Source of the DNA: Dictyostelium discoideum
Lineage: Eukaryota
Direction of reading: 5' to 3'
Assembly (NCBI GenBank): GCA_000004695.1
Contig: CM000152.2
Coordinates: 4,864,001-4,928,000 of the forward strand
Length of the DNA: 64,000 nt
Shown: one piece after another, positions 55,651-55,834 of the stretch
Numbering within the stretch: position 1 is the first letter of the stretch
Layout: every line of letters starts with the position of its first letter
The notes under the pieces: model-generated
The model's input: the letters and a program-made list of their open reading frames with translations, nothing else
Told to the model about the DNA's origin: nothing
Databases searched by the model: none
Program-made: the position numbers and the translations under genes

Positions 55651-55834
55651 CTTGTCCCATGCCAAAATTAATATGGCTGCTGAAATTAATATGATAATTT
55701 TGGCATAGGACTTATGTCTGCTAGAATTACCATATTAATTTCAGCAGCCATATTAATTTTGACATGCAAAGACCAACTATTTTAGGTTGAAATTAATATG
55801 GCTGCCGAAATTAATACGGTAATTTTGGGCATAG
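55651..55834. repeat. GC-enriched inverted and direct repeat element, MITE-, TIR- or structured-RNA-like.
   Basis: 'ccaaaattaatatggctgctgaaattaatatg' occurs at 55662-55693. Its reverse complement 'catattaatttcagcagccatattaattttg' lies at 55733-55763. A third direct copy 'gaaattaatatggctgccgaaattaatacggtaattttgggcatag' lies at 55789-55834. It is absent from the equivalent position of unit C. Confidence 0.45.

Follow-up and report, generated by a model that had tools for sequence, protein, structure and literature searches.

In plants and animals, the inverted repeats of DNA transposons give rise to long, near-perfect hairpins from which a Dicer-type enzyme cuts RNAs of ~21 nt. The DNA transposon thug-S is said to go back to Glockner et al. 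in 2001, and the Rfam family RF03716 was reportedly built from the miRBase ddi-mir-7131 entries of Avesson et al. in 2012. The multicopy miRNA_can_D3 loci of Dictyostelium have been placed in thug-S (Meier et al. 2016, PMC4894637; Liao et al. 2018), and thug elements make up ~0.1% of the D. discoideum genome (Malicki et al. 2017). Published D3 copies are described as lying within an intron of the thug-S gene. Two mature RNAs are given in Table 2 of Meier et al. (2016, PMC4894637), the 21-mer miRNA_can_D3-3p (AUUAAUUUCGGCAGCCAUAUU) and the 23-mer D3-5p (UAUGGCUGCUGAAAUUAAUGUGG), and six D3 loci are listed in the S4 Table of the same paper. Processing in Dictyostelium relies on a nuclear complex of DrnB and RbdB; in rbdB- cells the normalised D3 reads drop from 68 to 3.3 for the 21-mer and from 47 to 26 for the 23-mer, and D3 small RNAs rise in agnA- cells (Meier et al. 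2016, PMC4894637). New microRNA genes can arise, among other routes, from the hairpins of transposons, and Dictyostelium belongs to the small number of lineages outside plants and animals whose microprocessor has been characterised.

In the 64,000-nt stretch of Dictyostelium discoideum DNA analysed here (the window), a repeat search of positions 55651–55834 (the block) identified a ~48-nt motif that is present three times, in the order forward, inverted, forward. Judged by its sequence, the block is probably a solo, slightly diverged copy of the thug-S hairpin module, already catalogued as mir-7131 and miRNA_can_D3. Publications from 2012 to 2018 had already described the mir-7131/D3 family together with its small RNAs and transposon origin, and the current understanding of them is unchanged. 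The features of the block are as follows.

55658–55705: arm 1, forward copy, defined by its inverted repeat with arm 2 and its direct repeat with arm 3
55706–55718: loop of hairpin I (arm 1 with arm 2), 13 nt; plus strand GACTTATGTC, corresponding to the Rfam mir-7131 loop consensus
55719–55766: arm 2, inverted copy, the common middle arm, which can pair with arm 1 or with arm 3 (from inverted repeats and alternative folds)
55767–55789: spacer between arms 2 and 3, forming most of the hairpin II loop
~55790–55834: arm 3, forward copy, C variant GGCTGCCG, 92% identical to arm 1 in the arm alignment
55668–55756, both strands: match to Rfam RF03716 (mir-7131 microRNA precursor family) over the full model, positions 1–84; hairpin I
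55795–55815, minus strand: exact match to the miRNA_can_D3-3p 21-mer AUUAAUUUCGGCAGCCAUAUU, in the 5' arm of hairpin II on the minus strand
55730–55752, minus strand: match to the miRNA_can_D3-5p 23-mer UAUGGCUGCUGAAAUUAAUGUGG with one mismatch (A for G at position 20)
55670–55690, minus strand: 3p-type arm sequence AUUAAUUUCAGCAGCCAUAUU, one mismatch to the D3 21-mer, in the 3' arm of hairpin I

The first-pass annotation of this DNA described three copies of a motif arranged as inverted and then direct repeats. Alignment of arms 1–3 bears out this arrangement, and the 64 kb contain no further copy of the motif. The 48-nt inverted repeats formed by arms 1 and 2 have a complementarity of 92% across a 13-nt loop. 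The inverted repeats of arms 2 and 3 extend over 35 nt (55725–55759 and 55790–55824) with a complementarity of 94% and 30 nt between them, and arms 1 and 3 share a 39-nt direct repeat at 92%. Every arm is also internally palindromic (TGCCAAAATTA...TAATTTTGGCA). In arm 1 these sequences form an 11–16-nt terminal inverted repeat of its own that flanks the core ATATGGCTGCTGAAATTAATATG, and AAATTAATATG is present twice in the arm core. A search with the 27-nt core, allowing up to 3 mismatches, returned three sites in the 64 kb, all of them in the block, where shuffled sequences lead one to expect none. The locus-specific variants carried by the block are UAUGGCUGCUGAAAUUAAUAUGG, UAUGGCUGCUGAAAUUAAUAUGA, UAUGGCUGCCGAAAUUAAUACGG and AUUAAUUUCAGCAGCCAUAUU.

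The GC content of the block is 32.6%, with a maximum of 34–35% in any 60- or 100-nt sub-window. It had been put at ~40% in surroundings of ~15%; the lower figure replaces the former, and the flanks, at 14.8% and 13.2%, agree with the latter. The window as a whole has 22% GC, and when the 64 kb are divided into windows of 184 nt, ~17% of these reach the GC content of the block. Because coding exons also reach 32.6%, the composition of the block is unusual only relative to the intergenic background.

The three arms are predicted to form two alternative long hairpins with the middle arm in common. Hairpin I (arms 1 and 2) folds at −63.5 and −66.0 kcal/mol, with z scores of about −13 to −14, and hairpin II (arms 2 and 3) folds at ~−50 kcal/mol, with a z score of about −9. 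Folded as a whole, the block reaches −76.6 kcal/mol on the plus strand and −77.6 kcal/mol on the minus strand, compared with ~−35 kcal/mol for shuffled sequences (z ~−11). The minimum-energy fold of the whole block on the plus strand is hairpin I. On the minus strand it is the D3-type hairpin II together with a small hairpin inside arm 1, and arm 1 alone on this strand forms a 16-bp stem with a z score of −4.1. The long-hairpin folding that had been proposed from the letters alone is upheld by this fold check, with z scores of about −9 to −14 relative to shuffled sequence.

Membership in RF03716 requires a score at or above the gathering score, 74 bits, across the whole model. The block scores 96.1 bits at 55670–55756 on the plus strand and 94.0 bits at 55668–55754 on the minus strand (E ~1e-20), nearly equal values that favour neither strand as the transcribed one, and on each strand 84 of the 84 model positions are covered. 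It is the single locus returned by an Rfam scan of the whole window. Both D3 RNAs can be found in the Rfam consensus, at one mismatch for the 23-mer and two for the 21-mer. The designation '7131' was not found in the Dictyostelium miRNA literature searched, supplements included; mir-7131 is equated here with the thug-S miRNAs because its Rfam consensus is nearly identical to the D3 sequences of Meier et al.

Both published mature RNAs can be located on the minus strand of the block, where the 21-mer (55815→55795) lies upstream and is followed, after a gap of 42 nt, by the 23-mer (55752→55730). The coordinates in the S4 Table yield the same order and the same 42-nt gap at all six D3 loci. The block thus carries the published small RNAs in their published order and spacing, and its minus strand corresponds to the published small-RNA strand. 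Taken together, the small-RNA matches and the Rfam match make ~148 of the 184 nt homologous to known loci. By these matches, the published D3 hairpin can be assigned to arms 3 and 2 (hairpin II) and the Rfam mir-7131 hairpin to arms 2 and 1 (hairpin I). The two annotations appear to describe alternative hairpins of one three-arm module with a common middle arm, a relation that was not found stated in the Dictyostelium miRNA literature searched.

The same matches bear on the explanation that the block is a local palindrome, produced by replication slippage or fold-back duplication and unrelated to any repeat family or RNA gene. The array in which the block lies is prone to rearrangement: 120 bp are inverted at a distance of 400 bp from the block, and homology breaks off at its edge. 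However, a purely local origin is effectively refuted by the full-length Rfam match above the gathering score and by the exact match to a small RNA that is found, with the same spacing of 42 nt, at six other chromosomal sites.

Two observations concern these annotations more generally. In the S4 Table of Meier et al. (2016) the RNA labelled D3-3p sits 5' of D3-5p on the annotated strand at six of six loci. Set against the hairpin of arms 3 and 2, either the labels of the arms or the assigned strand in that table look exchanged. Separately, matches of the block to MIR8742, MIR5512, MIR774 and other plant or animal miRNA families were rejected, as they score far below the respective gathering scores and reflect a generic long AT-rich hairpin; ARAGORN detected no tRNA or tmRNA in the window.

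The block adjoins unit B (54906–55653) of a gene array, and unit B is 90–93% identical to unit C (56543–57309). Homology between the two units stops at 55650–55653 and 57306–57309, respectively, which is the left edge of the block, and it does not resume to the right. The sequence to the right of the block (55835–56542) is an AT-rich spacer with no similarity to the sequence after unit C or unit D. The segment 57310–58330 after unit C, considered as a possible remainder of a thug-S element, contains no ORF longer than 42 aa outside a CAA repeat and has no similarity to the block, and a no-dust BLAST search with the sequence after unit C was dominated by low-complexity matches. The first-pass annotation read the block as an insertion in unit B on the grounds that unit C lacks it. 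Unit C is indeed without the block, but because the homology never resumes, the array comparison shows a homology breakpoint and not an insertion with an empty site. No empty site occurs among the array-unit ends aligned from the window and from two other isolates, all of which diverge after a T-rich tract. The check for a target-site duplication at the block likewise gave nothing convincing: the sole flanking repeat is AAAAATA (55640–55646 and 55835–55841), which is A-rich, expected by chance in such DNA, and does not adjoin the left boundary set by the B/C homology.

These comparisons make it very unlikely that the block is an autonomous MITE, that is, a ~180-bp unit that entered array unit B and possesses terminal inverted repeats of its own as well as a target-site duplication. 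The ends of the block are imperfect inverted repeats (CATGCCAAAATTA... / ...TAATTTTGGGCATAG), and the block is missing from unit C and from six orthologous loci. Nonetheless, the ends resemble each other because each arm is internally palindromic, and the marks by which a MITE is recognized, a target-site duplication flanking terminal inverted repeats and an empty site, are both lacking. The homology of unit B to unit C and to the units of other isolates ends on the left and never resumes on the right, and the 64 kb contain a single copy, whereas 126 kb of related loci contain none. The original suggestion of a MITE or TIR fragment or a structured ncRNA gene, with thug elements named among the comparisons to make, is supported in so far as the block has the mir-7131 match, the D3 21-mer and, through the literature, a placement in thug-S; evidence for a mobile MITE was not found.

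The array occupies the ~7.4-kb interval 53400–60790, between an LRR-protein gene and the hydrolase gene DDB_G0281751. It is a small array of genes for secreted Cys-rich proteins of ~70 aa, with intact ORFs at 56824–57042 and 59705–59908. Positions 55130–55249 of unit B are inverted relative to positions 56758–56880 of unit C; the 120-bp inversion is 98% identical in reverse complement. In unit B the signal-peptide part (MLRFLIAIIVMITLLSNL) is on the minus strand and the mature Cys-rich part (NGNNVLECFDKCTIKKDPNY...) on the plus strand, at ~55253–55390, and owing to this split unit B is a broken gene copy. It is a further, though unlikely, possibility that the palindrome itself caused the nearby array rearrangements, namely the B/C homology breakpoint and the 120-bp inversion.

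Between the LRR and hydrolase genes lie 0.3–1.3 kb in D. citrinum, D. dimigraforme and one D. cf. discoideum. In the second D. cf. discoideum the interval measures ~1.8 kb, and in two other D. discoideum isolates it comes to ~3.8 kb and contains 1–3 units. These size differences indicate that the Cys-rich array is a recent, fast-changing expansion. A 73-nt direct repeat of ~90% identity (57336–57408 and 59284–59356) brackets a ~1.9-kb stretch between units C and D. The stretch is GC-richer, contains no long ORF outside a long (CAA)n run, is missing from the orthologous loci of other isolates, and may represent a further segment that was inserted or duplicated. The AT-rich spacer contains a short GC-richer island (ctccaatctctggatatagtggtaaacatcctgagttaggtcggatctcccca) at 56310–56375, which is ~500 bp past the block on its downstream side. 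After the island comes CCATATTAATTTT, which matches the arm core exactly over 13 nt, a match that is not significant (E 0.31). No tRNA was found in the island by ARAGORN, and no Rfam match.

The locus was compared with a further D. discoideum assembly and with six orthologous loci of 21 kb each, from two other isolates named D. discoideum, two D. cf. discoideum, D. citrinum and D. dimigraforme. In the D. discoideum assembly GCA_054883475.1, which is 99.7% identical over 13.4 kb, the block is present (196 of 196 positions). The two other D. discoideum isolates are ~92–95% identical at the locus and have 1–3 array units, the ends of which run into unrelated sequence. Neither the block, searched by BLASTN, nor a mir-7131 match, searched with Rfam, was found at any of the six orthologous 21-kb loci. 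The block copy is thus lineage-specific. This fits an origin from a mobile element and argues against an old conserved miRNA gene, and the mobile-DNA-like behaviour attributed to the block at the outset is borne out to this extent.

The ORF at 52671–53360 on the minus strand is identical to AX4 DDB_G0281751 at 224 of 225 residues, which agrees with the assignment of the window to D. discoideum. With regard to chromosome position, the block is probably not the chromosome-3 D3 locus of Meier et al., as it lies at ~4.998 Mb of a 6.43-Mb assembly and the published locus at 4.53 Mb, an approximate comparison of coordinates from different assemblies, and as its 23-mer has a mismatch. A separate observation at the six related loci is a pair of U4 snRNA genes on opposite strands just upstream of a La-domain gene, with scores of 47–62 bits (gathering score 46). 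The corresponding region falls past the end of the window. The pairs are located as follows.

L042, 3401–3997: U4 snRNA pair
L043, 4060–5013: U4 snRNA pair
L044, 4074–4994: U4 snRNA pair
L051, 1059–1798: U4 snRNA pair
L052, 684–1387: U4 snRNA pair
L053, 3078–3716: U4 snRNA pair

The assignment to thug-S is based on the published placement of the D3 loci together with the identity of sequence and spacing to those small-RNA loci, rather than on a direct alignment with thug-S. The flanks of the block (55150–55650 and 55835–56540, 13–15% GC) contain no ORF of at least 60 aa other than array-unit remnants. This suggests that nothing else of thug-S lies beside the block, which is at most a fragment of the element. 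There is one copy in the window, and six further loci are listed in the S4 Table. A 19-mer scan of metagenome contigs returned 41 loci; these are judged to be chance matches because each is a single match of only 24–35 nt without a hairpin, on contigs of 26–58% GC. A 24-mer scan of prokaryotic genomes and viral contigs returned no matches.

If the published pathway applies to the block, a transcript crossing it would fold into hairpin I or hairpin II. The nuclear microprocessor, comprising the Dicer-like DrnB and the dsRNA-binding RbdB, would then cut the hairpin into duplexes of ~21–23 nt with 3' overhangs. These duplexes would be loaded into an Argonaute, and their most obvious complementary targets may be the thug-S transcripts themselves. 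The predicted geometry of the duplexes was obtained by laying the published sequences on the pairing registers of the inverted repeats, not from reads. In this geometry the sequence at 55670–55690 on the minus strand would pair with 55752→55730 in a duplex having a 2-nt 3' overhang at the base-proximal end. By coordinates, the 21-nt species would have a 2-nt 3' overhang at one end of the duplex, as expected of Dicer-type cuts, and at the other end the overhang would be 4 nt with the 23-mer and 2 nt with a 21-nt isoform.

The features by which Meier et al. (2016) and Liao et al. (2018) recognize microRNA genes, a stable hairpin and small RNAs on both of its arms with 3' overhangs of ~2 nt, are therefore all predicted for the block from its folds and coordinates. 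Conservation, which is a further criterion, is not found, as the six orthologous loci are without a copy or a mir-7131 match; this fits a young locus carried by a transposon. The D3 reads map to multiple sites, the exact 21-mer being common to several loci. By analogy with the published loci, we infer that this particular copy may be transcribed and processed. Since no thug-S exon or ORF is present in the flanks, transcription of the block would need read-through or a fortuitous promoter.

The near-perfect hairpins are compatible with a young relic as well as with an active locus. The main alternative, possible though less likely than not, is that the block is inert transposon debris, a dead and untranscribed thug-S fragment, and that the small RNAs of the family come from other, fuller copies. 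Consistent with this, the flanks contain no ORF or other thug-S sequence, the block lies between a broken array unit and an AT-rich spacer, and the copy differs from the published 23-mer and, by a 3-nt loop insertion and several substitutions, from the Rfam consensus. The copy is also seemingly outside the six loci of the S4 Table. However, both hairpins are near-perfect, with 92–94% complementarity and z scores of −9 to −14, and the 21-mer is intact. The arms of a palindrome that decay independently would lose their complementarity, although a young insertion would look alike. In addition, intergenic regions in Dictyostelium are short, which makes read-through transcription plausible.

A more far-reaching possibility, which we regard as unlikely, is that the block, as an unlisted and lineage-specific solo copy, represents a three-arm module that has left its thug-S transposon and now functions on its own in making small RNAs. 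Over the whole block the mir-7131-type and D3-type folds are nearly isoenergetic (−76.6 and −77.6 kcal/mol). On this reading the middle arm would select one of these two mutually exclusive hairpins, and the strand and direction of transcription would decide which pair of small RNAs is made. Read as a solo, slightly diverged thug-S hairpin module, the block illustrates cleanly how such a module can occur apart from a full transposon. As it is present in one D. discoideum lineage and absent in close relatives, it could serve to test whether a solo copy suffices for small-RNA production.

Among the described systems, the mir-7131 precursors of RF03716 share with the block the 5' arm (AAUAUGGCUGCUGAAAUUAAUAUGG), the type of 3' arm and the loop core (GACUUAUGUC). 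The block differs from them by a 3-nt insertion (UAG) in the loop and by several substitutions in the lower stem and 3' arm (GCAGCC as opposed to the consensus GCaaCC). Moreover, its stem extends ~10 bp past the model on each side, and its third arm lies outside the Rfam model. Compared with miRNA_can_D3, the 21-mer is identical, the 23-mer has one mismatch, and the order and the 42-nt gap equal those at the six published loci. However, the block locus is seemingly absent from the six listed, and no thug-S exon or ORF lies beside it. The relation to thug-S rests in part on the literature, which assigns the hairpin family to this element, and the block is lineage-specific as expected of mobile DNA; unlike the element, it is a ~180-bp hairpin module alone, for which no transposase-like ORF, target-site duplication or additional thug-S sequence was found. 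In contrast to the transposon- or MITE-derived miRNA loci of plants and animals, the block has three arms that can form two mutually exclusive hairpins, and small-RNA processing in Dictyostelium proceeds via the DrnB/RbdB nuclear complex.
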